The notes: generated by a model not told the origin, from the sequence alone. A DNA stretch of 24,000 nucleotides from an uncultured bacterium (GCA_948469375.1 CAOKLO010000011.1:37283-61282), one strand, 5' to 3'; positions 4,340-22,443 are shown, counted from the stretch's first letter. Numbers and translations: made by a program.

Positions 4340-7300
4340 ATGAAAACATTTCAGCTCAAAAAGAAGCTGTCCCTGCTGCTGGTCACGGCGCTGACCCTGG
4401 GCCAGCTCAGTGCCCCCGCGCTCGCCGCCGGGACTGCGGAAGCCGCCGTCAGCGAGGACGGCAAGATCACCACCATCACCACCGAGATCACCTGGACCAG
4501 CCCGGAGGGCGAGGACCCCGTGGTGGAGGGCGCGGTGGTCACGACCGAGACCACCGTTGTGGACGATGAGGGCCGCGTGGTCCAGGAGAGCGGCAGCGAG
4601 ACGGGCACTGAAACCACCGTCACCACGGACACGCAGACCGCCGCCCCCGTGGTGGAGGAAAAGGAGGCCGTAACCGAGACGGAGACCGGCGAAACGGTCA
4701 CTTCCGGGACCACCGGCGAGTTTGAAACGGTAGACAGCTCCACATCCTCCACCAGCGAGGCGGTTGACCGCGTTTTTCCTGGCGGGAGCGACATCACGGT
4801 TGACCTGACCCCCGGCAGTACCGCCACCGGGACAGCCGTGGTAGACCGGGAAGCTCTGGCGGGGCAGCTCGTCCGCCCCGATGCCGGAGACTGCGACATC
4901 ACGGACCCGGAGACCGGGGAGACCATCGGCCACAAAACTGTGACGGTGGAGGACGTTCTGGATGAGGACGGGGCCGTGATCGGCTATACGTCTACATCCA
5001 CCGTGGAGACCTCCGCCACCACCGCCCTCCCGGACAACATCTTCAGCGCCGAGCCTCCCGTGATGCCGGAACCCCAGGAGCCGGTCACGGACGCGGACGG
5101 CGTGACCACCAAAGTGGAGGTCCAGCCGGTCTATGATGATGCTGGCACCCTCACCGGCTACCAGACCATTGAGACGAAAATCAGCAGCACCGAGGCGGCA
5201 GCTTCCGAGATCGTCCTGCCCGACCGCCCCATTGAGGGCGAGACCACCGATGCGGAGACCGGAGAGGCCACCGCTGTCACGGTGACGGAGCTGTACGATG
5301 CCTCCGGCACCCTGACCGGCTATGAGGTCACGACAACCACCACTGACAGCGAGGGAAATGTCCGTACTGCGGTGGAGACCCTGCGCGGCACAAAGACCAC
5401 CAGCACCCTAACCGAAGTGACCGATGTGACGGTCACCACCGTGACCTTTACGGAGTTCACAGGCGGGGCCGTCACCACCACGACCAGGACCACCACCACC
5501 GAGACGAAGCGGATCGCCGCCAGCGACCGCACCGTTACCGCTGGAATGGGCAGTGTCACCGCCGGTAAAAATGACGGCATCCTTGAAACCAACGGCGTTC
5601 AGGCGGACGTGAAGGAGCCTGACGTGGGCAAAACGGACCAGAAAACCGATCTCTACCACCGTGCGGATAAGGACGGCGTGGAATTTGACCCGGACGGCTA
5701 TGGCTTCCAGTGGCTGGGCAAGTACGGCCTGGAGAGCGCCATCCGGGTGGATGCGGTCAAGACCAATGAGGACGGCACCGCTTCCTCCAGCGACCGCTGG
5801 CAGGCCCACCAGTATGTCCTGGTGGACAAGGACGGCAACGAGCACTACGTCTACTGCGCCGATTTCGCCGTCAGCCCCCAGGCGGGTTTCCGCTATGACA
5901 TGGAGAACGTGGAGGATGCCGGGTACTATGACAGCGAGGCGGCGGCGCATATCCGGGCTATCGCCCAGAAGGGCTACTGGGGAACCTCTGATGGGGCCGG
6001 GAGCCTGGACGCTGTGAAACAGATGATGGTGAACGCCTACAACAACGGCGAGATCGACTGGGGCAGCTATAACGGTATGGCTACCGCGTGGGGATTCAAC
6101 ACCTATCTCACAGACGGTATGGCCCTGGCGGCGACTCAGGCGGCAATCTGGACCTACGGAAACAGCGGCAGTCTGGCGATCGACCGGGAGGACCCCTTCA
6201 CCAGCTACTATCAGGCTACAACCGGAAAGAACTGGCGGGACCTGGACAGCCGGGAGTGGGCGCTGACAAAGGCACTCTACGACTACCTGATCGCTCAGAC
6301 GGAAGCGCCCACCAACAAAAACACCCTCATCAATGAGAACAATTTTGCTGCCAATGCCAGTCTGACTGTGGGCCAGCGTGATGAGGATGGCAAATATGAG
6401 GCCGACCTGACCTTCACCCTCGCCGTCATGCCCGACACGGAGAGTGACGATCTGCTGGTCCATGTCGTTGTGGGCGGCGAGATCGTGGAGACGCGGCGGC
6501 TGGCCGGAGACGATTCCGAGACCCAGTACGGCGTGATCCCCCGGAGCGAGGACGGTAGCTATACCCTCTCCGGGCTGAAGCTGGCGGACGGCGTGAATAT
6601 CGACCTTCAGCTCACCGGGACCCAGAACATCGGCGAGGGCGTGTACCTGTTCACATCCGAAGTCCGCACAGACCCGGTGGGCACTGATGAGAACGGGGAG
6701 CCGGTTTTTTCCTCCCAGACCTTTGTGGGCATCGAGAGCGGCAGGCAGTCTGTGGACCTGTCCGTCTCCCTCCATTTCACCGTCAATGAGGCCAGCGCCG
6801 AGATCGTCACGGACAACATCAGCGTGACCGAGCAGAAGGTGGATACCACTGAGACCAGCCGGACGGATACCTCCACGACCATCGAGGGCTGGACAGAAAC
6901 CGCCGTGACTGTCACCACGGTTCAGCAGAGTGACCGGGAGTGGGAGGTCACTTGGGAGAAGAATGATACTTATCCCGAGCCGGTTACGCCCGTTGAGCCG
7001 GAGGACCCCCAGCCGCCCGTGGACCCGGAACTGCCCGACACGCCGGATGTTCCCGATGTTTCGGAGAACCCCCTGGTTGTGGATATGCTGGGGCCGGAGG
7101 ACCCCGTGGAAACCCCCGATGAAGTGGAGATTCCCGATGTGGAAGTGCCCGCTGCGGACGTTCCCGATACGCCCGATGAGAACATCCCCGTTGAGGAAAT
7201 CCCGGATGATGACGTGCCCCTCTCCGATGTGCCGCAGACCGGCGACGCCTCCGGGATGTGGTGCGTCCTCCTGACGGCCTCCCTCGCTGGGCTGGGGATC

Positions 7301-7345
7301 ATGATCTGCCTGGAAATTCGGGACAGAAAGAGAACGAGTAACTGA
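4340..7345 (+). CDS. Cell-wall-anchored thioester-domain (TED/TQXA) adhesin
   Basis: SD AAGGAGG at 4326-4332. Signal peptide MKTFQLKKKLSLLLVTALTLGQLSAPALAAG. T/E-rich stalk. YVYCADF Cys506 (nt 5855-5857). AATQAAIW Gln600 (nt 6137-6139). Pro/Asp-rich spacer. VPQTG (nt 7229-7243), then a hydrophobic helix and an RDRKRTSN tail. Confidence 0.85.
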   Translation: MKTFQLKKKLSLLLVTALTLGQLSAPALAAGTAEAAVSEDGKITTITTEITWTSPEGEDPVVEGAVVTTETTVVDDEGRVVQESGSETGTETTVTTDTQTAAPVVEEKEAVTETETGETVTSGTTGEFETVDSSTSSTSEAVDRVFPGGSDITVDLTPGSTATGTAVVDREALAGQLVRPDAGDCDITDPETGETIGHKTVTVEDVLDEDGAVIGYTSTSTVETSATTALPDNIFSAEPPVMPEPQEPVTDADGVTTKVEVQPVYDDAGTLTGYQTIETKISSTEAAASEIVLPDRPIEGETTDAETGEATAVTVTELYDASGTLTGYEVTTTTTDSEGNVRTAVETLRGTKTTSTLTEVTDVTVTTVTFTEFTGGAVTTTTRTTTTETKRIAASDRTVTAGMGSVTAGKNDGILETNGVQADVKEPDVGKTDQKTDLYHRADKDGVEFDPDGYGFQWLGKYGLESAIRVDAVKTNEDGTASSSDRWQAHQYVLVDKDGNEHYVYCADFAVSPQAGFRYDMENVEDAGYYDSEAAAHIRAIAQKGYWGTSDGAGSLDAVKQMMVNAYNNGEIDWGSYNGMATAWGFNTYLTDGMALAATQAAIWTYGNSGSLAIDREDPFTSYYQATTGKNWRDLDSREWALTKALYDYLIAQTEAPTNKNTLINENNFAANASLTVGQRDEDGKYEADLTFTLAVMPDTESDDLLVHVVVGGEIVETRRLAGDDSETQYGVIPRSEDGSYTLSGLKLADGVNIDLQLTGTQNIGEGVYLFTSEVRTDPVGTDENGEPVFSSQTFVGIESGRQSVDLSVSLHFTVNEASAEIVTDNISVTEQKVDTTETSRTDTSTTIEGWTETAVTVTTVQQSDREWEVTWEKNDTYPEPVTPVEPEDPQPPVDPELPDTPDVPDVSENPLVVDMLGPEDPVETPDEVEIPDVEVPAADVPDTPDENIPVEEIPDDDVPLSDVPQTGDASGMWCVLLTASLAGLGIMICLEIRDRKRTSN

Positions 7346-7352
7346 CCGCACA

Positions 7353-7385
7353 GCCGGGGCCGGGTTATCTGGCCCCGGCGTTTTT
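7353..7385 (+). terminator. Terminator or attenuator between the adhesin and sortase genes
   Basis: 9-bp GC stem GCCGGGGCC / GGCCCCGGC followed by TTTTT. Confidence 0.65.
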
Positions 7386-7401
7386 GATAAGGAGACTGAC
7401 T

Positions 7402-8163
7402 ATGCGTATCAATCCCAGAAGATTTTTTGAGATTTTCTTCCTCGCGCTGCTGTGTGTCTGCCTGCTGATGCTCTGGTGGTACGGTACAGAGTGCTGGAGG
7501 GCGGGACAGCTTCACCAGGAGGCGGCGCTGCTAGCAGGCATCCCCGACCGTGCCTCCGATACATCAGAGGTGCTGTCTGACGGAACAAGCGCCGGGGCCG
7601 TCTCCGTTGGCCTGGACCTGTCCCCGCTGCGGGAGGTCAACGCCGACGTGGTGTGCTGGATCGAGATTCCCGGCGTTCTCTCCTATCCCGTCCTCCAGGG
7701 GGAGGACAATGCCTACTACCTCTCCCACGCCTGGGACGGCGAGGCGAACGCGGCGGGGGCCGTCTTCCTGGACTACCGGGCCAGCGCCGGTCTTACAGAT
7801 TTTCACACGCTCCTGTACGGTCACAGGATGCGAGACGGGTCCATGTTCGGCAGCTTGAAGCAGTACAGTGATGTCGGCTTCTGGCAGGAACATCCCAGCG
7901 TCTGCCTCTCCGATGAGGACGGCATCCGGCGGTATGATATTTTCGCCGCCTACGAAGTGGGGGTGGCGGAGATCGTCTACCGGCAGGACCTCTCCAGTGC
8001 GGAGGACCGGCTGGAGCTGATCCGGTTCGGCCTCGACAACTCCGTCATTGAGACGGGCATCGTGCCAACCGTCACGGACACGATCATCACCCTCTCCACC
8101 TGCACCGGCAGCGGACACAATGCCCGCTGGGTGGTCCAGGCGGTGCGGTGCCAGGAGGCATGA
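7402..8163 (+). CDS. srtB: Class B sortase
   Basis: SD AAGGAG at 7389-7394 precedes ATG 7402. N-terminal TM anchor. Catalytic-type motifs LLYGHRM (His), TLSTC (Cys) and a C-terminal ARWVVQAVR (Arg). Confidence 0.85.
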   Translation: MRINPRRFFEIFFLALLCVCLLMLWWYGTECWRAGQLHQEAALLAGIPDRASDTSEVLSDGTSAGAVSVGLDLSPLREVNADVVCWIEIPGVLSYPVLQGEDNAYYLSHAWDGEANAAGAVFLDYRASAGLTDFHTLLYGHRMRDGSMFGSLKQYSDVGFWQEHPSVCLSDEDGIRRYDIFAAYEVGVAEIVYRQDLSSAEDRLELIRFGLDNSVIETGIVPTVTDTIITLSTCTGSGHNARWVVQAVRCQEA

Positions 8164-8234
8164 CCGCCGCATCCTTGCAATTTTTCCGATGCTCCTGTAT
8201 GCTGATCTCAACAAATCGACAAGGAGTGATTGGA

Positions 8235-8522
8235 ATGAGGCTATTGCTGAAGGTCCTGGCTGCGCCGGTGATTGTGGCGCTGACGGTGTTCGTCTGGCTG
8301 TGCGTGGGAGTAGTCTACTGCGCCGGGATGGTGATGAGCGTGGCGGGGTGGATAGCGGCCCTCCTGGGCGTGGCGGTGATGCTGACCTACTCCGTCAAAA
8401 ACGGCATCGTCCTCCTGGTGATCGCGTTCCTGCTCAGCCCCATGGGACTGCCTGCGGCGGCGCTGTGGCTGCTGGGGAAGGTCCAGGATGTGCGGTACTT
8501 CATCCAGGATGCAGTATACTAA
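8235..8522 (+). CDS. Small multi-pass membrane protein (95 aa)
   Basis: AAGGAG at 8221-8226 precedes ATG 8235. Three hydrophobic segments are visible in the translation. It may belong to the small CD1845-like ICE membrane proteins (from memory, unverified). Confidence 0.55.
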   Translation: MRLLLKVLAAPVIVALTVFVWLCVGVVYCAGMVMSVAGWIAALLGVAVMLTYSVKNGIVLLVIAFLLSPMGLPAAALWLLGKVQDVRYFIQDAVY

Positions 8523-8560
8523 AAACAGGCTGGTGGGAGCATTTCTCACCAGCCTGCTTT
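8521..8560. terminator. Bidirectional terminator between convergent genes
   Basis: Stem CAGGCTGGTG / CACCAGCCTG, extendable by further pairs, with an A-run upstream and a T-run downstream. Confidence 0.65.
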
Positions 8561-8564
8561 CTGC

Positions 8565-8795
8565 CTATTCCTTTTGACTGGGCGGGATAAACTCCAGCAA
8601 ATCGCCTATCTCGCACTCAAGGACTGTGCATAACCGAGCCAACACATCAATGTCCAGCCGGGTCACAGAGTTGTTGCAGTAGTGGTTGATCTGTGTTCTC
8701 TGCATCTCCGCACGGTGGCTGAGTTTGTTCTTGCTCAGGCCGCTTTCCTCTATCAGTTTCGCAAGATTTATCTTGATCGTGCCATACTGCTCCAA
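8565..8795 (-). CDS. XRE/Cro-CI family HTH regulator (76 aa), apparent TTG start
   Basis: HTH segment LSKNKLSHRAEMQRTQINHYCNN. TTG start with AGGGGG about 7 nt upstream on the minus strand. Confidence 0.7.
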   Translation of the reverse strand: MEQYGTIKINLAKLIEESGLSKNKLSHRAEMQRTQINHYCNNSVTRLDIDVLARLCTVLECEIGDLLEFIPPSQKE

Positions 8796-11551: not shown

Positions 11552-11878
11552 TTACCGTTGTTTGGATGCGTCAGCGTATAGCCGCAGGATTTGGCAGGCA
11601 TCCTCCCGTTGACGCGGCGACAGCGAGTTGATGATTTCTGCAATCGGGCTTTCATGAGCTGTCACAGTTCCAAACAGCAGATAATCTATGCTGATGGTAA
11701 GCGTCCGGCTCAAGCGAATTAGCGTGTCCAATGATACGCTCTTTTCTCCGCGTTCAATCATCTGATAAAACCTCAGACTGATGCCAATCTTTTCCGCGAC
11801 ATATTCCTGTGTAAAGGCGAGCTGGTTTCGTCTGTTACGGAGGCGTTCACCGAATAACAGCAATTCCTCATGTGTCAA
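11552..11878 (-). CDS. XRE-family HTH regulator (108 aa), divergent from the SLOG/RT unit
   Basis: FTQEYVAEKIGISLRFYQMIERGEK ... DYLLFG. Confidence 0.8.
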   Translation of the reverse strand: MTHEELLLFGERLRNRRNQLAFTQEYVAEKIGISLRFYQMIERGEKSVSLDTLIRLSRTLTISIDYLLFGTVTAHESPIAEIINSLSPRQREDACQILRLYADASKQR

Positions 11879-11942
11879 ACATCATCACCTCTCATGGTTC
11901 GTAGTTTACACCTGTTAGTTCGTTCCTGAAACGAAATGTTAG

Positions 11943-11971
11943 TTGCTATTACGAACTATGAGTAGTATAAT
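11943..11971 (+). promoter_or_regulatory. Promoter of the 12030-15676 unit, with an overlapping operator-like repeat
   Basis: TTGCTA at 11943-11948, a 17-nt spacer, then TATAAT at 11966-11971. The 8-bp inverted repeat TAGTTCGT (11916-11923) / ACGAACTA (11951-11958) places one arm inside the spacer. A direct repeat TGTTAGTT lies nearby. Confidence 0.5.
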
Positions 11972-12029
11972 GGGAATCAACAATATACAGACACCCGACA
12001 GAAAAATATGCGTCAGCTAGGGGAAAACT

Positions 12030-12641
12030 ATGCCAGAACAATCTAAAAATGACATCCCGGACGATGGACTCTTCCTAAACCTATTGACCAGGGTTTTAGA
12101 AATCATAAAATCAAAACCCTTTGCAAACATGGACGAGGACGAGTTAAGCCTTTATGCGGACTACGTGCAGTACAGAGCACAGAGGGACCTCTTTGAACTG
12201 TTCGAGGATGTGTCGCCGGGTACGACCACCTGGGAGAATTTTCGGCTGATGATGCGCGGCACACAGGAACTGCGGGACATCTGTATGGCGGTCATCTGCC
12301 GGAAGATAGGGACCGCTCTCTGTGATTTTAATTTTACGGAAAAAGAAATTCCTTTTTGCAGAGAAACTGACGAGCCAGCGGAAAATATGCTTTATGCGGC
12401 CCGGCTTTTTTCAGAAAGCGAGGGGGTCATCCTCATGGCGCTATTTCTGTTGTTTGCAGAACTGGCGCACTTTATCCATTTGCGGGACACGGTATGTCCC
12501 GGCTACAAGTGGGAGGACTATTATCACGATCTGTTTCATGGCGGCAAGCTGTGGGATGCGGTGAGGATCGCTTTTCGGGGAGCAATACAACGTTTAGATT
12601 TTAAGCCTGACTGGTTGGAGGTTGGATTCAATGAACTATGA
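12030..12641 (+). CDS. Hypothetical protein (203 aa), no recognisable domain
   Basis: ORF track. AGGGGAA lies upstream of the ATG. The 3' end overlaps the next gene by 11 nt. Confidence 0.6.
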   Translation: MPEQSKNDIPDDGLFLNLLTRVLEIIKSKPFANMDEDELSLYADYVQYRAQRDLFELFEDVSPGTTTWENFRLMMRGTQELRDICMAVICRKIGTALCDFNFTEKEIPFCRETDEPAENMLYAARLFSESEGVILMALFLLFAELAHFIHLRDTVCPGYKWEDYYHDLFHGGKLWDAVRIAFRGAIQRLDFKPDWLEVGFNEL

Positions 12642-13182
12642 AAATACTGCGGCCTTTACCGGCCACCGCCCCAGCAAACTGCCCTGGCGTTATGATGAGG
12701 CTGATCCCAGGTGCATAGCACTGAAGGAGGTCCTTACGGAGCAGATCAGACTGCTGGCAGACAGGGGCGTGACCACATTCCTCTCAGGTATGGCCCTGGG
12801 GACCGATCTCTGGTGCGCCCAGATTGTTCTGGACCTTCGCAAAGAGAATCCCGCCCTACAACTTCACTGTATTCTTCCCTGCGAGGGGCAAAAAAATAAG
12901 TGGCCTGCATCAGAACAGGAGCGGTATCGCTCTATCCTGAAGCAGGCCGATGATGTGGTTTTTGTAGAACGGGAGTATACCCGGAACTGTATGCTGGAGC
13001 GGAACAGATATATGGTTGATAACTCTTCGATTCTTCTTGCCGTCTACAACGGAGTTCGGCGCAGCGGCACGGGGGCAACCGTGAGCTATGCAAAAAAGTG
13101 TGACCGGGAGATCATTGTCATTGAGCCTGCGTCTCAAAGCATCTCTTCTGTCGGAGGAAGGTATCAAGGCCAACCGTCTTAG
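12631..13182 (+). CDS. SLOG-superfamily DUF1273 / YpsA-like protein
   Basis: GGAGG at 12617-12621 precedes ATG 12631. Motifs FTGHRPSKLP, FLSGMALGTDLWCAQIVL and SGTGATV are typical of DUF1273/YpsA. Confidence 0.8.
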   Translation: MNYENTAAFTGHRPSKLPWRYDEADPRCIALKEVLTEQIRLLADRGVTTFLSGMALGTDLWCAQIVLDLRKENPALQLHCILPCEGQKNKWPASEQERYRSILKQADDVVFVEREYTRNCMLERNRYMVDNSSILLAVYNGVRRSGTGATVSYAKKCDREIIVIEPASQSISSVGGRYQGQPS

Positions 13183-13188
13183 CCCTCT

Positions 13189-13208
13189 GCAAACAGTTTG
13201 CTTTTTTT
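13189..13208 (+). terminator. Weak terminator-like hairpin
   Basis: GCAAA-CAG-TTTGC followed by TTTTTTT. The stem is short, so termination is probably leaky. Confidence 0.35.
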
Positions 13209-13288
13209 ACAATCTTATGCCACAATGGCTTTGATCTCCATTGAGGGCAGGAGAAAATTAACGCCTGTCCTCTGCAAAGGAGGCTACC

Positions 13289-15676
13289 ATGAAGATCGTG
13301 AGCTGGAATGTAAATGGAATTGTCGCCTGCCGGAGAAAAGGCTTCTTGCAGTTTCTGAGGGACACACAACCGGATGTGATGTGCTGCCAGGAAATCAAAA
13401 CCCGCTGCGTACTGCGCACACCGGGTTATCATCAATTCTGGAATCCCGCAAAACGTCCAGGCTATTCCGGGACGCTTACTCTGACAAAACTGCTGCCGCT
13501 TTCTTGTTCGCTTGGTATGGGCATTGAAAAGTTTGACGATGAGGGAAGACTAATCACGCTTGAATACAAAAATTTTTTTGTTGTCAATGTATATGTCCCC
13601 AGTATTCATACCGGCTCAAAGCCGGAAAGGCCGGATTTTCGCTTGGAGTGGGACAATGCGCTGCGGGAGTATGTCTCGAAACTGAAAAAGCCCGTAGTCT
13701 TAGCGGGGGACTTTAACGCTACACGCAGCTACATAGACACCTATCCTGAGAACGGGAAAAATGAACCAGAACCGCCCTTTTTTTATTCAGAAGTGCGGGA
13801 GGGACTGGAGCGGCTCCTATCTACTGGATTAGTGGACGCTTTTCGGGTACTATACCCACGGCGAACGGGGGCCTATACATGGTGGGGGCCGAAGAACAAC
13901 GACCGGGCCGAAAACCGTGGTTCGCGATTGGACTACTTCCTTGTGTCTGGTGAAATACTTTCTTCTGTGCGAAGCGTTAAGTTTCACAAAGATACTCACG
14001 GTTCGGATCACTGCCCGATCTCTATGCTTTTCAATCCGGTTACGCCGAAGCTGGAAATGAGCGACAGAGATATGGTGGCAATATGGGCCTCCATCAACTG
14101 GGATACGCTGGAGGAAGTTCTTCTTTCGATGCAGCAGGATTTGGCCTATGCCGCATACAACCGGGAATGGGACAAGGTTGACCGTCTCCAAAATGAGCTG
14201 GTCCGCTCCTGGGCGGCGCGGGCGCTGGCTGTTCGCTCTACCCTGGACAAAAGCACCTTCCCAGGAGTTGACGGTGTTCGATGGACTACGGACGCACAGA
14301 AAGCGCGGGCCGCAGTGTCCCTGACCTCCAGAGGCTACCGCCCACTCCCATATCTGCATATGGAGCTGGAAGAAAACGGGAAGACGCGAACAAATCTTCT
14401 TCCCGCAATGCGGGATAAGGCCATGCAGATTTTATATTCCTACGCCCTTGACCCTGTTGCGGAATCTACAGCGGATCGCAAGTCCTTTTTCGCAAGAAGA
14501 GGACGCTCGGCGCTGGATGCACACGCATACCTCAGTCGAGACTTGAGTGGTGATAATCCACCAGACTATGTAGTCCTTATAGATGTACAATCTTTTTACG
14601 ACACGGTGGTTCATGACTGGCTGATAAAAAACATCCCAATGGATAAAACGATGCTGCGGAAGTTTTTGAAGGCTGGCATGGTAAAAGAGGGAGAGATGTT
14701 CCCAACGGACAAAGGGATGTCCATGGCCTCCAGTCTATCGTCTATCCTGGGGAATATGATCTTGGACGGTTTGCAGTCTTATCTCTACGACCATCTTTAC
14801 CCCTCTGGGGGCGTTGACTATAGAAACGGAAATCTCCACAGATTCGCTGATGATATGGCTATTACCGCATATGGCTATGAACAGGCGGAGAAGATTATGG
14901 CGATTACCTCTGAATTTCTGGCACAGCGGGGCCTGCGGGTACACCCTGATAAATCCTGCATTGCAAATGTCAATGCAGGATTTGACTATATCGGCCGGAA
15001 CTATAAACGTGTTGACGGCGTTCTGACAGTGACACCGGCAGACAGCTCTATCAGGAAAATAGAACATGAGTTGGAAAAACTCATCATGAACTTTACAGGA
15101 ACCCAGAGAGCTTTGATTGAGAAGATCAATCAAAAGCTGAAAGGATGGGGGAGCTATCACCGCGTGGAGGATTCCTACATGGAATTCCGCCATATTGACG
15201 CTGTTGTTGAGGGGCTGCTGGTGAAAAAGATGTGTGAAAAATATCCCAGCTGGCACCGGCAGACCGTTTTGAATAAGTTCTGGACAAAAGATGGAATGAC
15301 ATATGTTTTTATACTGCCGACCGACCCGTCCGTCAGGGTTGTTCAGCTAGCGCAGTTGCCGATTGTGCGTCACAAACCATGCAGAGTTAAGTTCAACCCC
15401 TATTTGGACCAGGATTATCATATCTACCTCAAGCACCGGCGCGATGCGCAAAAAAGCAACGGAGCTTATCGGGCGGTATGGACCCGTCAGAGTGGACGCT
15501 GTGCCTATTGCAATCAAAGGATGCTTGCCGATCAAGAGATAGAACTTGTAGAAAAAAACATTGGGCAGGGATGGAAAATAAAAAACCTGATCTACATACA
15601 CCGGCGTTGCAGCTATCAGGTATGTTTTTCTTCAAACGGAGCGGAGGGAGATCCTATTGACGCAGGGAACTTATGA
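13289..15676 (+). CDS. Fusion protein: ExoIII/ExoA/APE-type (EEP) endonuclease + group-II-intron-like reverse transcriptase + degenerate C-terminal CxxC/HNH-like finger
   Basis: SD AAAGGAGG at 13276-13283.
- EEP signature: SWNVNG, CQEIK, NVYVP, GDFNAT, RLDYFLVS, GSDHCP.
- RT blocks: FPGVDGVRW, LIDVQSFYD, GMSMASSLSSILGNMILD, FADD (nt 14843-14854), FDYIGRNY.
- Thumb/X: KLKGWGSYHR.
- C-terminal finger: CAYC (from nt 15500) ... IHRRC.
- One uninterrupted frame of 795 aa. Confidence 0.85.
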   Translation: MKIVSWNVNGIVACRRKGFLQFLRDTQPDVMCCQEIKTRCVLRTPGYHQFWNPAKRPGYSGTLTLTKLLPLSCSLGMGIEKFDDEGRLITLEYKNFFVVNVYVPSIHTGSKPERPDFRLEWDNALREYVSKLKKPVVLAGDFNATRSYIDTYPENGKNEPEPPFFYSEVREGLERLLSTGLVDAFRVLYPRRTGAYTWWGPKNNDRAENRGSRLDYFLVSGEILSSVRSVKFHKDTHGSDHCPISMLFNPVTPKLEMSDRDMVAIWASINWDTLEEVLLSMQQDLAYAAYNREWDKVDRLQNELVRSWAARALAVRSTLDKSTFPGVDGVRWTTDAQKARAAVSLTSRGYRPLPYLHMELEENGKTRTNLLPAMRDKAMQILYSYALDPVAESTADRKSFFARRGRSALDAHAYLSRDLSGDNPPDYVVLIDVQSFYDTVVHDWLIKNIPMDKTMLRKFLKAGMVKEGEMFPTDKGMSMASSLSSILGNMILDGLQSYLYDHLYPSGGVDYRNGNLHRFADDMAITAYGYEQAEKIMAITSEFLAQRGLRVHPDKSCIANVNAGFDYIGRNYKRVDGVLTVTPADSSIRKIEHELEKLIMNFTGTQRALIEKINQKLKGWGSYHRVEDSYMEFRHIDAVVEGLLVKKMCEKYPSWHRQTVLNKFWTKDGMTYVFILPTDPSVRVVQLAQLPIVRHKPCRVKFNPYLDQDYHIYLKHRRDAQKSNGAYRAVWTRQSGRCAYCNQRMLADQEIELVEKNIGQGWKIKNLIYIHRRCSYQVCFSSNGAEGDPIDAGNL

Positions 15677-15837
15677 ATGAGGATATAGCCTGAGTTTCGG
15701 TATATATCATCTCGCATATTCCCCGAAACCGTTGGAAATTGTGCGCTCAGAGCAAAAGCGGGCATGTTTGGAAATAAGGCCGTAATCCCTTGCAAGATAA
15801 CGGATTCAGAAAAAACAACGAAACTCGGACATAGGTC

Positions 15838-15866
15838 TTGACTTCCAAAGTAAGTTCTGATAAAAT
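15838..15866 (+). promoter_or_regulatory. Extended -10 promoter of the RiPP operon
   Basis: TTGACT at 15838-15843, a 17-nt spacer ending in TGA, then TAAAAT at 15861-15866. Confidence 0.55.
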
Positions 15867-15944
15867 GATACAGAAATTTACAGAAGAGTATAATCAGCAC
15901 AAAATATCCACAGTAAAACACAGTGCAAGAGAGGGGGGGGTATA

Positions 15945-16214
15945 ATGAAATGTCGTATTGATTGCAAGGTATGTTGGCAACGAATAAAAAGTCAAATTTA
16001 TATCATCCGGGATGATAAGTTTATTCTTTTGAATGAATCGGCTTCATTGATATGGATGGGGATTTATCAAGGAAAGACTACTACAGAAATCGCCAAAGAT
16101 TTATACAACCTCTATGGTACTGATTTCTCTGTTATTTTAGATGATGTAAGTGGAACAGTAAATGATTTAATTTCTGCCGGGGTATTAACTTATGGAAATG
16201 TTCAATTCTCTTAA
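15945..16214 (+). CDS. PqqD-family peptide chaperone (stand-alone RRE)
   Basis: 89 aa. The pattern LLNESASLIWMGIYQGKTTTEIAKDLYNLYG...DDVSGTVNDLISAGVL matches the PqqD/RRE fold signature. Confidence 0.8.
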   Translation: MKCRIDCKVCWQRIKSQIYIIRDDKFILLNESASLIWMGIYQGKTTTEIAKDLYNLYGTDFSVILDDVSGTVNDLISAGVLTYGNVQFS

Positions 16215-17211
16215 GGAGATATCTAGTTATACGCAAGCTCACCAAGTGTTATGGAATGCGCAAATTGAACTTCTTACATTGTGTAATTTTGCTTGCCAAC
16301 ATTGCTATATACCTAATAGAACATCCAAAGGACTTCCTTTGTTGGTAATTAAAGACTTAGCTACTGCATTTTTTAACATGGGTACATTTAATATAACATT
16401 AACCGGCGGAGAGCCCTTATTGCGAGATGATATATTCGAAATTATTGAAGAATTTCGGAATAAGGGATTAAGAGTTAAGCTTTATAGCAATGCGTCTTTA
16501 CTAGATAGAGATAAATGTATACGATTAAAGGAATTGGGAATTAGTCAGTTTTCAACAACTATATTTTCCCTAAATCCTCAAATTAATGATTGTATTACAT
16601 GCAAAAATGATTCTTTAAATTTTATTCTACCTAATATAGCATTGTTGGAAGAATTATGTGTGCCAGTTCAAATAAAAATGCCAATTCTGAAAATGAATTA
16701 CGAGTCTTATGAAGAGCTTAAAACATTCTGTGGTGCGCATAATTATAGCTTTTTTCCAAGTCCTAATATTTCCCCCAAAACCGACGGTGATTCTTCACCA
16801 CTGAAATTTGAACTAGCTGAACGAGAATTTGCGAAAATGATTCGCAAAATAGATGCAGAACACACAAAAAATGTGACTGGGGATCAAAATGCTTTTAGAA
16901 AAGAAGATATCATTTGTCATTCGTTGAATAATTCGGTTTTTATTAATAGTATCGGCGATGTTTTTCCCTGTATCTCATGGCCAGTAAAGTTAGGGAATAT
17001 TTTTGAAAAGTCAATAGCGGAAATTTGGAACACTTCTGATGTATTACAATACTTAAGGAGCCTAAAGAAATCACATATGAAGTTCTGCGGAAAATGTGAA
17101 TATTCTACGCATTGTACAGTTTGTCCGGGAGATTCCATGATGGATGGTGATATGTTGGGGTGTTCACATCTACAAAAAAAATGTGCAAAAGCCATTATGG
17201 GACTTATATAG
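16192..17211 (+). CDS. Radical SAM / SPASM-domain peptide maturase
   Basis: CNFACQHCY (Cx3Cx2C). SPASM signature: CHSLNNSVFINSIGDVFPC (Cx12Gx4C), CGKCEYSTHCTVC, and a distal Cys. Overlaps the PqqD-like gene by 23 nt. Confidence 0.9.
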   Translation: MEMFNSLKEISSYTQAHQVLWNAQIELLTLCNFACQHCYIPNRTSKGLPLLVIKDLATAFFNMGTFNITLTGGEPLLRDDIFEIIEEFRNKGLRVKLYSNASLLDRDKCIRLKELGISQFSTTIFSLNPQINDCITCKNDSLNFILPNIALLEELCVPVQIKMPILKMNYESYEELKTFCGAHNYSFFPSPNISPKTDGDSSPLKFELAEREFAKMIRKIDAEHTKNVTGDQNAFRKEDIICHSLNNSVFINSIGDVFPCISWPVKLGNIFEKSIAEIWNTSDVLQYLRSLKKSHMKFCGKCEYSTHCTVCPGDSMMDGDMLGCSHLQKKCAKAIMGLI

Positions 17212-17549
17212 GAAATGAAAGACGTAAGTTCATTTTACAAATCTTAAGTCCCAAATAGCAAATAATTTGGAAAAGGGAGAGAATGTGTAGATTAGAAATT
17301 TTGGTACAGCTATAGTAACGTTAGTCCCTCTATAGAACTGATCTTGGCCTTCAACCACGACCGAAATTTCTTGCCATTTCGCTTTTTCTGAGCTTCTCGT
17401 AGTATATTATAGGGATGAGCAAACGCGAGTTTTGCAAAAGCACAGTGCAGTGGTGTTTATTTTCTCTGCAAGTGCTATATGTCGTATCATATCGTAAGCA
17501 AATTCTAGTTTTGCCTGTCCCTATAAAATTTTAAAAGGAGGTGTAAAAC

Positions 17550-17663
17550 ATGAAGTATGAAAAGCCTGCAATTCTCGTCAACAAAACGATGCCGCGTGCG
17601 GCTGTTGGGGCCGATTGTGGTCACGGCAACAAGTGCAATGGCCCGAAAGATGATCATGACTAG
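17550..17663 (+). CDS. RiPP precursor peptide, 37 aa: MKYEKPAILVNKTMPRAAVGADCGHGNKCNGPKDDHD
   Basis: It falls below the length cut-off of the ORF track. SD AAGGAGGTG at 17535-17543 lies 6 nt before the ATG. Stop is TAG at 17661-17663. It sits between the maturase and the exporter genes. Confidence 0.7.
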   Translation: MKYEKPAILVNKTMPRAAVGADCGHGNKCNGPKDDHD

Positions 17664-17674
17664 GTAAAGGAGAT

Positions 17675-17710
17675 GGCAGTCAGTATATAAAATACTGACT
17701 GCCAGTTTTA
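17675..17710 (+). terminator. Hairpin with T-run directly after the precursor gene (terminator or attenuator)
   Basis: 11-bp stem GGCAGTCAGTA / TACTGACTGCC, 7-nt loop, then AGTTTTA. Confidence 0.6.
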
Positions 17711-17713
17711 AAT

Positions 17714-19498
17714 ATGATAAAGGTTGTACTTAAAAATCTTCGCTATGTTCGCTATGCGATACAAGCTGACAAAATCAGTGCCTGGTCAATTATTTTGCTG
17801 AGTATGGCGATAAGCAGTATGTCAGCAGCGAAAATACTTGCAATTGGGCAATTACTTGATGATGTTGCCTTGTCACAATCCTTTGGATTCAGACGCATGA
17901 TTGTGAATACGTGCCTCGTCGTTTTCGTTTATTTGATGGAATACGTATTGTCTGCACTTCAGAACTATCTAAGGTTCAGAATTTGCATTCGCTTGAACAA
18001 CCAGATGGAAGATAAATTTTTCCTCAAGCTATCTGTTGTTCAGTATTCTTTACTGGAAGATAAAAAGAACAGCGATTTGATTTTTCATGTAAAAGATGGC
18101 ATTGAAAAAAGATTTTCGGACGGGTTTTCGCATGTGATAGAATTCTTTTCTTTTGCTTTTAGAGCTGCAGGAGTACTTGGGGTAATAATCACAAAGAATA
18201 TAAGCACAGGTATGATTCTTCTGCTACTCTTTGTTAGCTTGGGCCCCTTATATCAAAAATTAGGGGAGGTCAACTATCAAGCATATGCGGAAGCGAATAA
18301 AGCATTTCGCCGTGCCAAAAGCTATCTCCAAATCCTTTCAGACCGGGAGTACGCGAATGAGCGAGAAGTATTTGGCTATGATGCCTTTTTTAATAAAAAG
18401 TGGAGAACTTACTATCAAACCGCAATCGAAAAAGAAAGAGGTGCATCTAAACAGAATCATTTTAAGATTCTATTGGTAACTATTACCATAACATTTATGA
18501 CTGCATTATTGAGTTGTATCATGATTCCTGCATTGCTCAGAGAATCGCTCTCTCTTGGAGTTTATGTGCTGGTTGTGACACAATTGTTCAATTTGGTACA
18601 TTTTATGTCGTGGAATTTTTCTGATATCACGGAAAATCTTTCAGAAAATGCATTATATCTGGACGATTTTGATCGGTTTATGGATTTGAACGATACTACG
18701 CGGGCGGAGGGAGGAATCCTGCCTTCTCAAAAGCACATAAACATCCGAATCGAAGACCTGTCCTTTCGTTATCCAGGCTGTACGGACTATGCATTAAAGA
18801 ACGTTTCTTTTGAATTCAAAGAGGGAGTACATTATGCCATAGTCGGAAAAAATGGCGCTGGAAAAACTACGCTTGTAAAATTGCTGTTGGGTCTATATGA
18901 CGAATATGACGGGCAGATTCTGATCAATGGCGTAGACATCCGAACGCTTTCAAAGGCCACTCTCTCTTCCGTTTTTTCCGTAGTATTCCAGGATTATGGG
19001 AGATACGCGCTGACACTAAAAGAAAATGTTTTTCTGACGGATTTTGACGATCCACAGAAAGCGGCACAAGCGGAACGTATTTTGTCTCAACTGGGCTTTT
19101 GGGAGGGCCTTTGCCATCAGGAAAACAGAATGGATATTAGTCTCGGTAAACTTGACGAGGGCGGTATCGACTTATCGGGAGGACAGTGGCAAAAGCTTGC
19201 TATTGCAAGGGGGCTCCTGTCCGATGCTCTTGTATACATATTGGATGAGCCCTCCAGTTCGCTGGACCCAATCAGTGAAAGGCATTTATACGATCTATAT
19301 GACAAGGTTTTTAAAGAATATACAACCATTACGATTACCCATAGATTAGGAAATACAAAGGGGCAGGATGAAATTTTGGTTTTAGATGGTGGAACGCTTG
19401 CGGAATTTGGGTCCCATGAAGCATTGATGAAACGGCATTCCATATACTATGAAATGTTTACCCACCAAAGGAGTTGGTACCATGCGGAAAGTTCATAA
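17714..19498 (+). CDS. ABC exporter, fused permease and ATPase
   Basis: N-terminal TM region. Walker A GKNGAGKTT, signature LSGGQWQKLA, Walker B VYILDEPSS. No obvious SD before the ATG. Confidence 0.9.
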   Translation: MIKVVLKNLRYVRYAIQADKISAWSIILLSMAISSMSAAKILAIGQLLDDVALSQSFGFRRMIVNTCLVVFVYLMEYVLSALQNYLRFRICIRLNNQMEDKFFLKLSVVQYSLLEDKKNSDLIFHVKDGIEKRFSDGFSHVIEFFSFAFRAAGVLGVIITKNISTGMILLLLFVSLGPLYQKLGEVNYQAYAEANKAFRRAKSYLQILSDREYANEREVFGYDAFFNKKWRTYYQTAIEKERGASKQNHFKILLVTITITFMTALLSCIMIPALLRESLSLGVYVLVVTQLFNLVHFMSWNFSDITENLSENALYLDDFDRFMDLNDTTRAEGGILPSQKHINIRIEDLSFRYPGCTDYALKNVSFEFKEGVHYAIVGKNGAGKTTLVKLLLGLYDEYDGQILINGVDIRTLSKATLSSVFSVVFQDYGRYALTLKENVFLTDFDDPQKAAQAERILSQLGFWEGLCHQENRMDISLGKLDEGGIDLSGGQWQKLAIARGLLSDALVYILDEPSSSLDPISERHLYDLYDKVFKEYTTITITHRLGNTKGQDEILVLDGGTLAEFGSHEALMKRHSIYYEMFTHQRSWYHAESS

Positions 19499-21275
19499 GA
19501 AGACGTATAACATACGAAGAGTGTTTGGGGAGGTTGTGAGGGTTTCCCCTCTTCAATTTTTTCTACAATACGTCCTGGCTGTTGTGAGTTCTGTCTTCCT
19601 AGGCTTATTTATCGTACAATTGCAAAATGTATTTGATCATGCGGCAATCGTAGTTGAGAGCGCGTCTGCGGATGGCGTCTGGAGCCTGCTTTGTTCCTTA
19701 CTCATCCTGTTCCTGTACAAAGCTGGCTCGGAGAGCTTGGAAATCGCCAACGGATATCTTGGAAATGATTTTTATAACCGTTGCGCAGCATATTTTCTGG
19801 ATCTATATAATCAAAATATCGCCAAGATGCGCGCAATCACATTTGAAGAGAATGACAATTTAAAGCTCTATCGCAACGCATTGACGGGAGCAACTTCAGC
19901 TAGAGGAATGTTGCATGTCATCATGGATATATTTACACTTTATATCCCTTATTTCCTCACGATCATTTTCTATTTGGCAAAACAGGACGCCAGCCTGCTT
20001 GCCATTGTCCCACTTGTCGCCATACCGATCTTTATTACGAATCAAATTAAGAAGAAGAATTACCAGAGACTACATAAACATACGATCCATCCAAAACGGA
20101 AAAAAGAAGAATACACAAAATACCTTTCCGAATTTCCGTTTCTTAAGGAAGTTCGTGTCAAGGAGGCGTTCCGGTTCTTTTATGGAAAATATCTGTGCGC
20201 AAGGTCAGAATACAACAAACTTTGTCTGTCCACAAATGATCAAGAATTCATGCTAAACCTTGGCACAAAAATGATTACCTTGCTTGGTTTTATAACGATT
20301 TTGGGCCTTCTGATCGAGCGGCTAGCTACAGGGGCAATCAGCATTGGTGCCTTTGGCGCTATCTTTTATTCGTTGGACGACATGTATAGTTTGATGGAAG
20401 AAATGCTTATATCGAGAATCGAAACATATCATAAGGGGCTACCTGCTTTGAAATCATTTATTCAATTTGTGAATGGCGCATATACAGAGCAGGGGGAAGC
20501 AACAGGAACGGCGGGGCGCATTCCCTTTAAAAAGATGTCGTTGGAAAGCATTTCATTTATTTATCCAAATACAACTCGAATGGTCCTCAAAAATATCAGC
20601 TTTACCATTCATCGGAATGATAAAATCGCAATCGTAGGCTATAACGGGAGCGGGAAGAGCACATTGGCCAAAATCTTGCTTGGGCTATACAGTCCAACCG
20701 AGGGCACCATTTTGATAAATGACGACCCGGGTATAAGATCCGGCCCTCAAAATGCCAGCGTCATGTTTCAGCAATTTAATCGCTACAAAGAGACAGTTTT
20801 TAATAATATCTGGATCAGTGAGGCAACGGGCGATGAATCGGCTGGGGAGCAGGCGAAAAAAATAGCTTCTGAACGATTGAGGCAAATAAACCTGAATCAT
20901 TCCGTGCACGTAGAAGATACGCTGGACATATTATGCGCACGTGAATTTGGAGGCATCGACCTTTCCGGTGGACAATGGCAAAAATTAGCGACCGCGAGAA
21001 TGCTATATCGCGACCGTGACTTTATAGTATTGGACGAGCCGACAGCTGAAATCGATCCAGTATCAGAATCTCAGATGTTTCGTCTGTTTGAGAGCGAAAT
21101 GAGGAATCGGACGGCAATCATTATTACGCACAGAATGACCTCCATTCGTTTCTGTAACAAAATAATTGTCTTGCGGGATGGAGCGGTCGATGCCATCGGA
21201 GACCACGAAACTTTAATGAAAACTTCAGACCTTTACTACGCGTTGTATCACTCGATTGAGGAGAGATACCATTGA
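19482..21275 (+). CDS. ABC exporter, fused permease and ATPase (second subunit)
   Basis: AAAGGAG at 19467-19473 precedes ATG 19482, which overlaps the upstream gene by 17 nt. Walker A GYNGSGKST, signature LSGGQWQKLA, Walker B FIVLDEPTA. Confidence 0.9.
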   Translation: MRKVHKKTYNIRRVFGEVVRVSPLQFFLQYVLAVVSSVFLGLFIVQLQNVFDHAAIVVESASADGVWSLLCSLLILFLYKAGSESLEIANGYLGNDFYNRCAAYFLDLYNQNIAKMRAITFEENDNLKLYRNALTGATSARGMLHVIMDIFTLYIPYFLTIIFYLAKQDASLLAIVPLVAIPIFITNQIKKKNYQRLHKHTIHPKRKKEEYTKYLSEFPFLKEVRVKEAFRFFYGKYLCARSEYNKLCLSTNDQEFMLNLGTKMITLLGFITILGLLIERLATGAISIGAFGAIFYSLDDMYSLMEEMLISRIETYHKGLPALKSFIQFVNGAYTEQGEATGTAGRIPFKKMSLESISFIYPNTTRMVLKNISFTIHRNDKIAIVGYNGSGKSTLAKILLGLYSPTEGTILINDDPGIRSGPQNASVMFQQFNRYKETVFNNIWISEATGDESAGEQAKKIASERLRQINLNHSVHVEDTLDILCAREFGGIDLSGGQWQKLATARMLYRDRDFIVLDEPTAEIDPVSESQMFRLFESEMRNRTAIIITHRMTSIRFCNKIIVLRDGAVDAIGDHETLMKTSDLYYALYHSIEERYH

Positions 21276-21333
21276 CTTTCTTTGATTAGAGCAATCGACG
21301 CAATATCCAACATCCAGCGCAAGTGAACGAGGA

Positions 21334-22443
21334 ATGACAATCGGAAGGAAAGACCATGCCGAGTGCCTTATGGACAACCAAGATCAGTTTTTCTTTTACG
21401 CGAATAGTCACTTGCGGAGGGTGGATTTCATCTTGGTCCACATCTCTCAATGGGGTGAGATACGGATGGCTCACTATATGAAAGTCAGCACGGAAATCTA
21501 CCAAGTGTATCTCAAGTATATAGCTCCAGAGGACATACACGTCTATTCTATTGACGAGGTGTTCATGGATGTTACAAACTATCTTGCCACCTACGGCCTA
21601 TCACCCCGGCAGCTTGCAATGAAGATGATTCTTGATGTTCTTGAGACAACCGGCATTACCGCTACAGCGGGCATCGGGACGAACCTATATCTCTGTAAGA
21701 TCGCAATGGACATTTGGGCAAAGCACATTCAACCGGACGAAAACGGTGTCCGCATTGCTGAACTGGATGAGATGAGCTATCGCCGCAACCTGTGGGACCA
21801 TCGGCCACTCACCGACTTCTGGCGTGTAGGCAAAGGCTACGCAAAGAAGCTGGAGGCCAACGGACTTTACACGATGGGGGACATTGCGCGGTGTTCCACC
21901 GGCAAGCCTACGGAATATTACAATGAGGATTTGCTATATAAGCTCTTTGGCGTGAATGCAGAATTGTTGATAGATCACGCCTGGGGATGGGAACCTTGTA
22001 CTATTGGTGACATCAAGGCATATAGGCCAGAGAGCAGCAGTACCGGTTCAGGGCAAGTATTACAGTATCCATATCCGTTCGCAAAGGCCAAGCTAGTAGT
22101 ACATGAGATGGCTGACCAGCTATCGCTTGACCTTGTAGACAAGGGCCTTGTGACCGATCAGTTGACGCTGACCATTGGATATGACATTGATAATTTGCGA
22201 GATCAGGAGATCAGTAGCACTTATCAGGGAGATGTAACCGTAGACCGGTATGGTCGCGCCGTACCCAAACAGGCCCACGGAACAGAAACTATGGATGTAT
22301 ACACGTCCTCTACCAAGCAGATCGTTCGTGCGGCACTGGCGCTTATGATGATATTATCAACCTTCCCCATCATGTCTCAGACCGGCATCCGCAAATGCCA
22401 ATTAGGGATAGGGCGGCGCAGTTCTCGCCGTTTGCGGCGCTAA
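21334..22443 (+). pseudogene. Y-family (DinB/UmuC-like) DNA polymerase remnant, truncated at both ends
   Basis: Recognisable similarity starts near RMAHYMKVSTEIY (about nt 21466). It includes the SIDEVFMDVT catalytic block, the ATAGIGTNLYLCKIA motif and an HhH region. The N-terminal block carrying the first catalytic Asp is absent. The C-terminus runs into unrelated residues after TSSTKQIVRAALAL. Confidence 0.7.

Follow-up and report, generated by a model that had tools for sequence, protein, structure and literature searches.

Ribozyme-less reverse transcriptases (RTs) of the group II intron type have so far been given roles in CRISPR spacer acquisition and, in the case of G2L4, in DNA repair. 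The combination of a nuclease and an RT in one protein is thought to define the long interspersed nuclear elements (LINEs) of eukaryotes, to which the group II intron RT lineage is held to be ancestral. Here we describe a bacterial gene in which a nuclease of the ExoIII type precedes an RT of the group II intron type, and the apparently undescribed family to which this gene belongs. It was found in a 24,000-nucleotide (nt) stretch of DNA from an uncultured bacterium (GCA_948469375.1, CAOKLO010000011.1:37283-61282), the whole of which is referred to below as the window. The initial annotation of the window, made from the sequence alone, knew of no characterised RT class with an N-terminal ExoIII fusion, and we likewise found no match in the model libraries and literature searched. 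The recognisable domains fused to RTs in the classical survey are endonuclease (En), integrase and primase, with no ExoIII (PMC2602772), and a 2021 review of prokaryotic RTs mentions no ExoIII-RT fusion (PMC8632793). Full-text searches, including one for 'DUF7662', the Pfam domain found at the C-terminus of the family, turned up no description of it, most subscription-journal papers lying outside their scope.

Domain organisation of the nuclease-RT protein

The gene encodes 795 amino acids (aa) in a single uninterrupted frame preceded by a strong Shine-Dalgarno (SD) sequence, AAAGGAGG, 5 nt upstream of the ATG (Table 1). Both had been noted in the initial annotation, as had a list of motifs, all of which are present in the order given there. 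The arrangement that it proposed, an ExoIII-type nuclease followed by an RT of the group II intron type and its maturase domain, was confirmed by Pfam profile searches and by NCBIfam nuclease models that score above their cut-offs: Exo_endo_phos covers aa 4-241 of the window protein (3e-24), which passes both xth TIGR00633 (214 bits against a cut-off of 99) and exoDNase_III TIGR00195 (199 bits against 182.6). The nuclease motifs are SWNVNG (aa 5-10), CQEIK (33-37), NVYVP (100-104), GDFNAT (140-145), RLDYFLVS (213-220) and GSDHCP (238-243). In a 67-sequence alignment of the family, E35, D141/N143, D215 and D240/H241 are invariant and Y102 is invariant or nearly so. Among PDB sequences the window nuclease domain matches Bacillus subtilis ExoA (E 1e-59). 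The aromatic pair W198-W199 sits in YTWWG, with W198 at least 90% conserved and W199 invariant in the same alignment, and is equivalent to W212/F213 of ExoIII, required there for apurinic/apyrimidinic (AP)-endonuclease and exonuclease activity (PMC8887469). Because the domain is about 41% identical to housekeeping ExoA and retains this AP-site-recognising pair, it is ExoA-like rather than similar to the endonuclease (EN) of LINEs. The family shares with ExoIII, ExoA and APE1 all catalytic residues and the aromatic pair, and the N-terminal domain passes the equivalog cut-offs; the family differs from housekeeping ExoIII in that its nuclease is linked, covalently or operonically, to an RT and is carried on mobile elements.

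The remainder of the protein, from aa 264 to 779, matches the maturase of the T.el4h group IIB intron (6me0_C; E 9e-84, PDB sequences). Its motifs are FPGVDGVRW (aa 324-332), LIDVQSFYD (430-438), FADD (519-522), FDYIGRNY (565-572) and KLKGWGSYHR (616-625). D432 and D521/D522 are invariant in the 67 sequences, and the consensus of the RT active site is RFADD, with R518 also invariant. The NCBIfam model group_II_RT_mat (TIGR04416) scores 201.5 bits and fails its equivalog cut-off of 300. Near the C-terminus lies a zinc finger formed by CAYC (aa 738-741) and HRRC (771-774), whose ligands C738, C741, H771 and C774 are invariant in the same alignment. The initial annotation had described this finger as kept and the His pair of the HNH En domain as lost, and the alignment with T.el4h agrees on both counts: the flanking CxxC...HxxC is retained, and IELVE stands where the intron protein has EIHHILP. 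The suggestion that the En domain had been functionally replaced by the AP-type nuclease stood only in part. The His pair is indeed dead, but the sister introns L062 and L064, the closest real introns to the family, already lack it, and its loss may therefore predate the recruitment of ExoIII.

An AlphaFold2 model of a full-length relative (P0002) has a mean predicted local distance difference test score (pLDDT) of 83.8 within domains and a predicted template-modelling score (pTM) of 0.58. In Foldseek searches its RT matched the structures of group II intron ribonucleoproteins (template-modelling score, TM, 0.88-0.90), and its nuclease matched ExoA, XthA, Mth212 and APE1 (TM 0.8-0.9, 37-41% identity), with 41% identity and a TM of 0.91 to B. 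subtilis ExoA (5cfe).

Origin and extent of the family

We placed the RT in a neighbour-joining tree of our own, built with intron proteins and separate from the Zimmerly/Toro reference tree. The family, comprising fused, split and more distant RT-DUF7662 members, is monophyletic in 100 of 100 bootstraps and adjoins introns of Acutalibacter and Streptococcus suis. The absence of a ribozyme, reported in the initial annotation, was confirmed with Rfam: nothing in the window matched at the gathering score, and at E<=10 the region 11800-16400 gave only weak sub-threshold matches to unrelated families and no group II intron model. No intron model was found at the family loci L001, L002, L004, L006, L012, L027 and L033; at the nearest real introns (L062, L064, L075 and L077), which served as positive controls and include Bacteroidales introns, both group-II-D1D4-7 and Intron_gpII (domain V/VI) were detected. 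The gap between the upstream gene and the ATG is 106 nt only. A canonical, mobile group II intron was thus rejected as an identity for the gene: RT and maturase are present, but there is no ribozyme where the controls show one, and TIGR04416 falls below 300 bits. Because its RT adjoins intron RTs in the tree and is accompanied by no intron RNA, we have high confidence that this widespread family consists of ribozyme-less RTs descended from group II introns and is 'G2L' in the wide use of that term (Simon and Zimmerly 2008).

Group II intron proteins (T.el4h, PDB 6me0/8fli; L064, L062) align with the family from end to end (E 9e-84, about 31-36% identity, TM 0.9), through RT0-RT7, maturase/thumb, D region and the Cys-rich scaffold of the En domain. 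The family differs from them in having no ribozyme and no HNH histidines, in its N-terminal ExoIII and C-terminal DUF7662 domains, and in a gene that is neither inserted in a host gene nor mobile alone. Like the family, G2L4 is a free-standing, ribozyme-less RT close to intron RTs and with a conserved maturase motif, but it lacks the nuclease and DUF7662 and is proteobacterial and chromosomal, whereas the family is clostridial and found on conjugative elements.

The resemblance to LINE-1 ORF2p (PDB 8uw3/9hdr) lies in the order, within one polypeptide, of an endonuclease/exonuclease/phosphatase (EEP) nuclease, an RT with an N-terminal extension, a thumb and a Cys-rich C-terminus. The P0002 model aligns collinearly with ORF2p in Foldseek over about 900 columns, but at 13-14% identity and a root-mean-square deviation above 20 Å, as against 31-36% identity to intron RTs; the RT groups with bacterial introns and keeps the intron maturase. 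The roughly 41% identity of the nuclease to bacterial ExoA suggests that the ExoIII domain may have been recruited from a bacterial ExoIII-type gene independently of LINEs. The likeness is best taken as architectural, and convergence is its simplest reading: the nuclease stands far nearer to ExoA than the whole protein does to ORF2p, and the RT falls with bacterial introns. A functional parallel comes from LigD-type enzymes, in which a polymerase and an end-processing module are combined in one protein for damage tolerance. PrimPol-RT (PPRT) proteins likewise unite a polymerase and a second catalytic module, a group II-like RT being joined to another DNA-metabolic domain, and have a role in the oxidative-damage response (PMC12439943). 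In both cases the partner domains are different ones (PrimPol, phosphoesterase, ligase) and no sequence relationship extends beyond the RT fold, so that the likeness is functional only.

Other RT classes were not matched. The retron St85 model scored 16.7 bits against 235, and upstream of the gene there was no conserved or exceptionally structured region and no relevant Rfam match. No template/variable repeat pair of a diversity-generating retroelement was found in the 24-kb window, despite the nearby adhesin genes. Models of defence RTs remained below their curated thresholds (Drt3a, 29 bits against 200; Drt2, 16 against 390), and the PADLOC matches to the RT domain were to generic or partial RT models only.

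A protein search returned 346 relatives with E<=1e-10. Among 50%-identity cluster representatives there were 881 hits with E<=1e-30, and a one-genome-per-species scan confirmed 423 encoded relatives, both of these counts including ordinary intron RTs and free-standing ExoIII genes. In the 78 loci kept from the genome scan, family members come mostly from Oscillospiraceae and other gut Clostridia, and their hosts include Flintibacter muris DSM 110149, Bengtsoniella intestinalis BP47G (a complete chromosome), Dysosmobacter, Colidextribacter and cultured Oscillospiraceae. About 30 representatives consist of nuclease, RT and DUF7662 and about 35 of RT and DUF7662 only; the nuclease-RT-maturase fusion persists down to about 33% identity. 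In pairwise comparisons the ratio of nonsynonymous to synonymous substitution rates (dN/dS) is 0.03-0.07 for the whole sequence, and the nuclease, RT, zinc-finger and C-terminal regions taken singly give similarly low values. One relative (P0047) bears the bare NCBI label 'exodeoxyribonuclease III', which misses three quarters of the protein.

The survey of homologs proposed in the initial annotation found fused and split genes alike. In at least 11 genome loci, and in the IMG/VR contigs L098 and L099, a separate nuclease gene of about 250 aa lies directly upstream of an RT-DUF7662 gene of about 690 aa, and 8 of the 13 split-gene junctions that were read have a stop/start overlap, ATGA or GTGA. 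The RT-DUF7662 proteins of 675-716 aa were considered as RT-only relatives devoid of a nuclease and rejected as such, a nuclease gene being present directly upstream wherever a genomic locus existed. Because the fused and coupled split forms interleave in the RT tree, the nuclease and the RT appear to be functionally linked; their pairing by fusion or by translational coupling is a classic signature of functional partnership.

Several other apparent variants of the architecture dissolved on inspection. What looked like a nuclease-less protein of 721 aa in L092 and L093 is a multiply frameshifted pseudogene of a P0055-like copy (P0289; L092 3013-5771, L093 1147-3905), which occurs in about 100 collection blocks and is rendered by gene callers as a 721-aa 'RT' plus a 204-aa DUF7662 protein. 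The alternative N-terminal domains of P0231, P0214 and P0241 belong to ordinary introns read through from the host genes PcfJ, YodL and TraG. A profile search for DUF7662 in other architectures gave only short fragments of the nuclease-RT family, and the domain has no significant structural match. In P0245 and P0257, an ExoIII domain 43% identical to that of the family is fused to an unrelated C-terminal region of about 450 aa without a Pfam match. Synonymous divergence (dS) is mosaic in the pairs L010/L016 and L011/L015, with for example a dS of 0.23 in the RT core and of 0.8-1.7 in the nuclease and C-terminal parts, which indicates intragenic recombination between alleles of different conjugative elements.

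Conjugative elements, mobility and truncation of the window copy

The window is part of a conjugative element with the end of a helicase-containing polyvalent protein, DUF3849, NikA/MobC, a thioester adhesin, a sortase and a MobA/VirD2 relaxase, followed by an XRE regulator, an unknown open reading frame (ORF203), YpsA and the nuclease-RT gene. An ORF at 15-2585 has a Helicase_C match, and the equivalent gene in L002/L003 (1-2549) encodes a giant polyvalent protein (>3,400 aa) with MutS_I, LPD11, ResIII and helicase domains upstream of the NikA/relaxase module; such giant polyvalent proteins are a typical component of conjugative elements. The window and two related elements, L023 and L069, share the conserved gene order relaxase, YpsA, RT, variable cargo and Y-family polymerase, and relatives elsewhere are surrounded by genes for relaxase, VirB4/TraG, PrgI, TrbL, ParB, recombinase, methylase and regulators. 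The fusion is absent from the plasmid collection records and from 50,697 phage records. Seven full-length relatives lie on IMG/VR contigs, of which those inspected carry relaxase, ParB and recombinase genes and look like conjugative elements. We have high confidence that integrative/conjugative elements of gut Clostridia carry the family, and that its positions in them are fixed. A location in the leading (early-entry) region is unsupported, the gene lying downstream of the relaxase gene. In one locus (L002), a drum RNA (Rfam RF02958, 99.7 bits) at 13259-13372 on the minus strand lies about 400 nt downstream of the nuclease-RT gene; none was seen at the other family loci searched.

Neighbours were assessed by clustering and by targeted phmmer searches, and no partner gene is universal across the family loci. 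The most recurrent neighbour is a YpsA/DprA-like SLOG protein, a homologue of which occurs within the fetched flanks of 23 of 72 family loci, usually directly upstream, compared with 2 of 16 intron control loci. A Y-family polymerase lies near the gene in 8 loci, whose lineages share only 35-70% protein identity, a RecD2 helicase with a YqaJ exonuclease in 4, UvrD in 2 and a relaxase in 8. In L097 (891-4221, minus strand), and also in L028, L094 and L100, the RecD2-like helicase and YqaJ-type exonuclease genes stand just upstream of YpsA and nuclease-RT in a subfamily about 43% identical to P0002. In the window, ORF203, YpsA and the RT gene are presumably co-transcribed from the promoter-like site listed in Table 1. 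A short hairpin, GCAAAC-AG-TTTGC followed by T7 (13189-13208), immediately follows the stop codon of YpsA and may act as a weak terminator, which makes co-transcription of YpsA and the RT gene uncertain; it was not called by the consensus scan.

The initial annotation had offered a nick-and-prime retroelement as one explanation of the gene, and in its autonomous form this idea did not hold. An identical protein (P0119), present in about 100 collection blocks, has the same neighbours every time, and several genomes contain two or three copies on different contigs or elements that are 50-58% identical to the query. We also considered the gene as a mobile cassette, a first blastn search having hinted that in many pairs the match runs out about 15 nt before the ORF and about 58 nt after it. 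When all matched segments were listed, these breaks proved to be indels within otherwise 98-99% identical elements, together with a shared promoter-like stretch of the next gene, and the candidate was rejected. Upstream and downstream sequences are not conserved across clades, with no shared untranslated regions (UTRs) or terminal signatures, and remnants of the family are truncated at the 5' as well as at the 3' end. The search for a cognate non-coding RNA around the ORF, suggested initially, came to nothing: the flanks offered nothing alignable for a covariance model, no conserved flanking RNA was found, nhmmer retrieved only an identical copy of the window's upstream spacer, and the fold of this spacer is unremarkable (z = -1.4). 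There is no evidence of autonomous movement of the family gene.

The 795-aa frame of the initial annotation holds as a frame, but it is not the native full-length protein. Normal relatives are about 947 aa long with a C-terminal DUF7662, and the window protein is truncated at its 3' end, stopping exactly at the linker that precedes this domain, about 150 aa short; no remnant of DUF7662 exists anywhere in the window. DNA similarity to L069, which carries the 3' end of an allele 94% identical to that of the window and reads in frame into DUF7662, ends at 15661 and resumes at 21655 (blastn), and the GC content falls from 0.51 to 0.35 at the breakpoint. The low-GC block in between is no part of the RT system; it resembles a locus for a ribosomally synthesised and post-translationally modified peptide (RiPP) and took the place of ancestral cargo between the RT and polymerase genes. 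The candidate precursor that it contains is MKYEKPAILVNKTMPRAAVGADCGHGNKCNGPKDDHD. Compared with L023 and L069, the polymerase remnant is missing about 111 aa at its start, the catalytic motif among them, and about 315 nt have been deleted internally; in L023 the intact polymerase has 507 aa. Because the breakpoint at 15661 and the polymerase remnant flank the same block, a single replacement event appears to have clipped both genes. With both active sites but no DUF7662, the window copy may be impaired. L069 also contains, at 5880-8690, an in-frame chimera of an SLH-repeat surface protein and the last ~230 aa (zinc finger and DUF7662) of a window-like RT allele (94%), which is the reciprocal type of rearrangement to that of the window.

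Table 1. Coordinates of the nuclease-RT gene, its domains and neighbouring features in the window.
Feature	Position	Strand	Remarks
Nuclease-RT ORF	13289..15676	+	795 aa; range takes in stop codon; single uninterrupted frame
SD sequence AAAGGAGG	13276-13283	+	ATG 5 nt further on; read from sequence
ExoIII/ExoA-type nuclease domain, EEP fold, aa 1-250	13289..14038	+	catalytic E35, Y102, D141/N143, D215, D240/H241; aromatic pair W198-W199
RT N-terminal extension (RVT_N, RT0 region), aa 266-344	14084..14320	+	Pfam RVT_N 2.7e-14
RT fingers/palm (RVT_1), aa 363-569	14375..14995	+	Pfam RVT_1 9e-22
LIDVQSFYD with RT3 Asp	14576-14602	+	within RVT_1
RT active-site FADD	14843-14854	+	within RVT_1
Maturase/thumb (GIIM), aa 589-665	15053..15283	+	Pfam GIIM 2e-9; aligns to T.el4h maturase 6me0_C
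Degenerate HNH/En zinc finger (CAYC ... IELVE ... HRRC)	15500..15610	+	Zn ligands retained, catalytic His pair gone
XRE-type helix-turn-helix (HTH) gene	11552-11878	-	Pfam; divergent from promoter-like site
Promoter-like site TTGCTA-17-TATAAT	11943..11971	+	upstream of the ORF203-YpsA-RT string; consensus scan only
YpsA/SLOG (DprA-like) gene	12622..13182	+	Pfam YpsA 8e-30, DNA_processg_A 7e-8; directly upstream of the nuclease-RT gene
Rearrangement breakpoint	15661..15662	.	homology to full-length alleles stops; ORF continues 4 codons to stop
Low-GC replacement block (GC 0.33-0.43)	15662..21654	+	PqqD, radical-SAM/SPASM, candidate 37-aa precursor, two ABC transporters
PqqD-like gene	15945-16214		inside low-GC block
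Radical-SAM/SPASM gene	16192-17211		inside low-GC block
Candidate 37-aa Cys-containing precursor	17550-17663		strong SD; MKYEKPAILVNKTMPRAAVGADCGHGNKCNGPKDDHD
Two ABC transporters	17714-21275		inside low-GC block
Y-family (ImpB/MucB/SamB) polymerase remnant	21334..22443	+	beyond replacement block; Pfam IMS match begins at profile position 66

Possible functions of the nuclease-RT family

Enzymes of the ExoIII family cut at abasic sites and clean up or resect 3' termini, so that a 3'-OH remains. We tentatively propose, with confidence somewhat short of even, that the nuclease-RT protein may be a self-contained enzyme for DNA nick or end processing and synthesis, acting in DNA repair or in the establishment of the element. 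Its ExoIII domain would incise DNA at an abasic site or nick, or clean or trim a blocked or mismatched 3' end, leaving a 3'-OH, and the tethered RT active site would extend that end along a template of DNA or RNA. This would result in gap filling, lesion bypass or microhomology-mediated end joining (MMEJ), as shown for G2L4 and for the RTs of canonical group II introns. Binding of nucleic acid or of a partner would probably be the part of the zinc finger and DUF7662. Either the conjugative element or its host would benefit, in the course or in the wake of single-stranded DNA transfer or when DNA is damaged. For G2L4 and ordinary group II RTs, published accounts describe DNA-polymerase, translesion, terminal-transferase, snap-back and MMEJ activities, and increased survival after oxidative and double-strand-break damage by H2O2 or phleomycin (bioRxiv 10.1101/2022.03.14.484287; PMC11761039). 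The repair hypothesis, already among those of the initial annotation, gains modest support from the recurring YpsA/DprA-like, Y-family polymerase, RecD2/YqaJ and UvrD neighbours. The ExoA-like character of the nuclease, with its W198-W199 pair, also speaks for it, and G2L4 makes a part in repair plausible by analogy.

A number of observations weigh against this proposal. The neighbour associations are modest, amounting to about 10-35% of loci, may reflect the general gene content of conjugative elements, and were compared with a control of 16 intron loci only. The active site is FADD, like that of mobile-intron RTs, and not the YIDD of G2L4 (PMC4244168), and the retained maturase/thumb and RT0 region would equally suit an RNA-templated role. 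The geometry between domains is uncertain in the P0002 model, as its pTM reflects, and we infer the substrate, the template (DNA or RNA) and the hand-off between the two active sites. Furthermore, about 20-25% of the sampled family copies are truncated or frameshifted, a pattern seen more typically in accessory or conflict genes than in genes with an essential function for the element.

The initial annotation had itself raised the question of an assembly or frameshift error joining separate xthA and RT genes. Some lineages do carry the two as split genes, but the fusion is found in a single frame in hundreds of independent assemblies (ENA, JGI, Logan and NCBI), including isolate genomes, its linker is conserved and purifying selection spans the junction, so that we consider such an artefact excluded for practical purposes. 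A more serious possibility, although one that we doubt on balance, is that the window copy is a non-functional relic, the loss of DUF7662 together with the destruction of the polymerase having removed its native function from an ORF that has not yet decayed. DUF7662 is under purifying selection equal to that on the catalytic domains (dN/dS in the same range) and almost every intact relative has it; the breakpoint results from rearrangement rather than marking a natural terminus, the adjoining polymerase gene is clearly dead, and truncated and frameshifted copies are common in the family. Yet the remaining 795 aa differ from the family at just 3 of its 177 columns conserved to 90% or more, below the family median of 4. 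The same truncated arrangement is present in a second sample (L084), and its allele falls in a cluster of 116 sequences at 90% identity. An independent lineage (P0081; 794 aa, 53% identity) stops at the same domain boundary, the C-terminal part is encoded by a separate ORF in L007, and the core of nuclease, RT and zinc finger may keep activity.

For the family as a whole, we regard as unlikely a role as a defence or anti-defence RT carried as cargo of conjugative elements, in which the RT would sense or copy nucleic acid and ExoIII would act as effector or product processor. Most characterised ribozyme-less bacterial RTs are defence systems (PMC8632793; PMC2602772). Some loci have variable regions with HTH regulators, an MmeI-like methylase/restriction enzyme, HipA, WYL or STAND-like kinases; frequent pseudogenes and intragenic recombination fit conflict genes, generic PADLOC RT models match the RT domain, and seven relatives come from IMG/VR contigs. 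No known defence-associated RT (DRT), abortive infection (Abi) or retron family, however, was matched at curated thresholds, and there is no conserved non-coding RNA or partner gene. The fusion occurs in none of the phage records, the IMG/VR contigs inspected look like conjugative elements, and the syntenic backbone position in the window, L023 and L069, with neighbours that recur across lineages, is unlike that of swappable defence cargo. We also know of no defence effector that is a housekeeping-type AP endonuclease. We think it very improbable that the protein is a ribozyme-free, non-autonomous target-primed or RNA-templated writer, in which ExoIII would nick DNA and the RT would, like ORF2p, copy from the 3'-OH an RNA that could be the protein's own mRNA, a transcript of the element or some other RNA. 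Such a writer would explain the domain order shared with ORF2p and the collinear Foldseek alignment, the origin of the RT in a retromobile lineage with FADD, RT0 region and maturase/thumb kept, and the recruitment of a new nuclease while the ancestral En is dead. Autonomous mobility is contradicted by the constant context of P0119, by genome copies that are 50-58% diverged and lie in different elements, by cassette boundaries that are indels, and by the lack of conserved UTRs or terminal signatures. The remnants are truncated at either end and do not show the 5'-truncation bias expected of target-primed reverse transcription (TPRT), and the nuclease keeps its AP-site-recognition residues and resembles ExoA, not the nickase of LINEs. 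The related proposition, that bacteria independently reached the solution of LINE-1 ORF2p, with an ExoIII-made 3'-OH priming the copying of RNA into the chromosome or element by TPRT or RNA-templated repair, is in our estimation distinctly unlikely; if true, the family would represent a natural single-polypeptide "nick-and-reverse-transcribe" machine.

The nuclease-RT family shows that the LINE-type order of nuclease and RT also arose in bacteria, from the lineage presumed to be ancestral to LINEs, and opens the step from a ribozyme-less intron RT to the gain of an AP nuclease to experiment. A compact, natural fusion of this kind is of possible interest for RT-based genome-writing tools. Cultured hosts such as F. 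muris DSM 110149 and B. intestinalis BP47G make the family testable, and under our tentative reading of it as a nick- or end-processing and synthesis enzyme, it would provide a natural system in which to ask whether an end-processing nuclease and an RT work together when bacteria repair DNA or when conjugative DNA is established in gut Clostridia.

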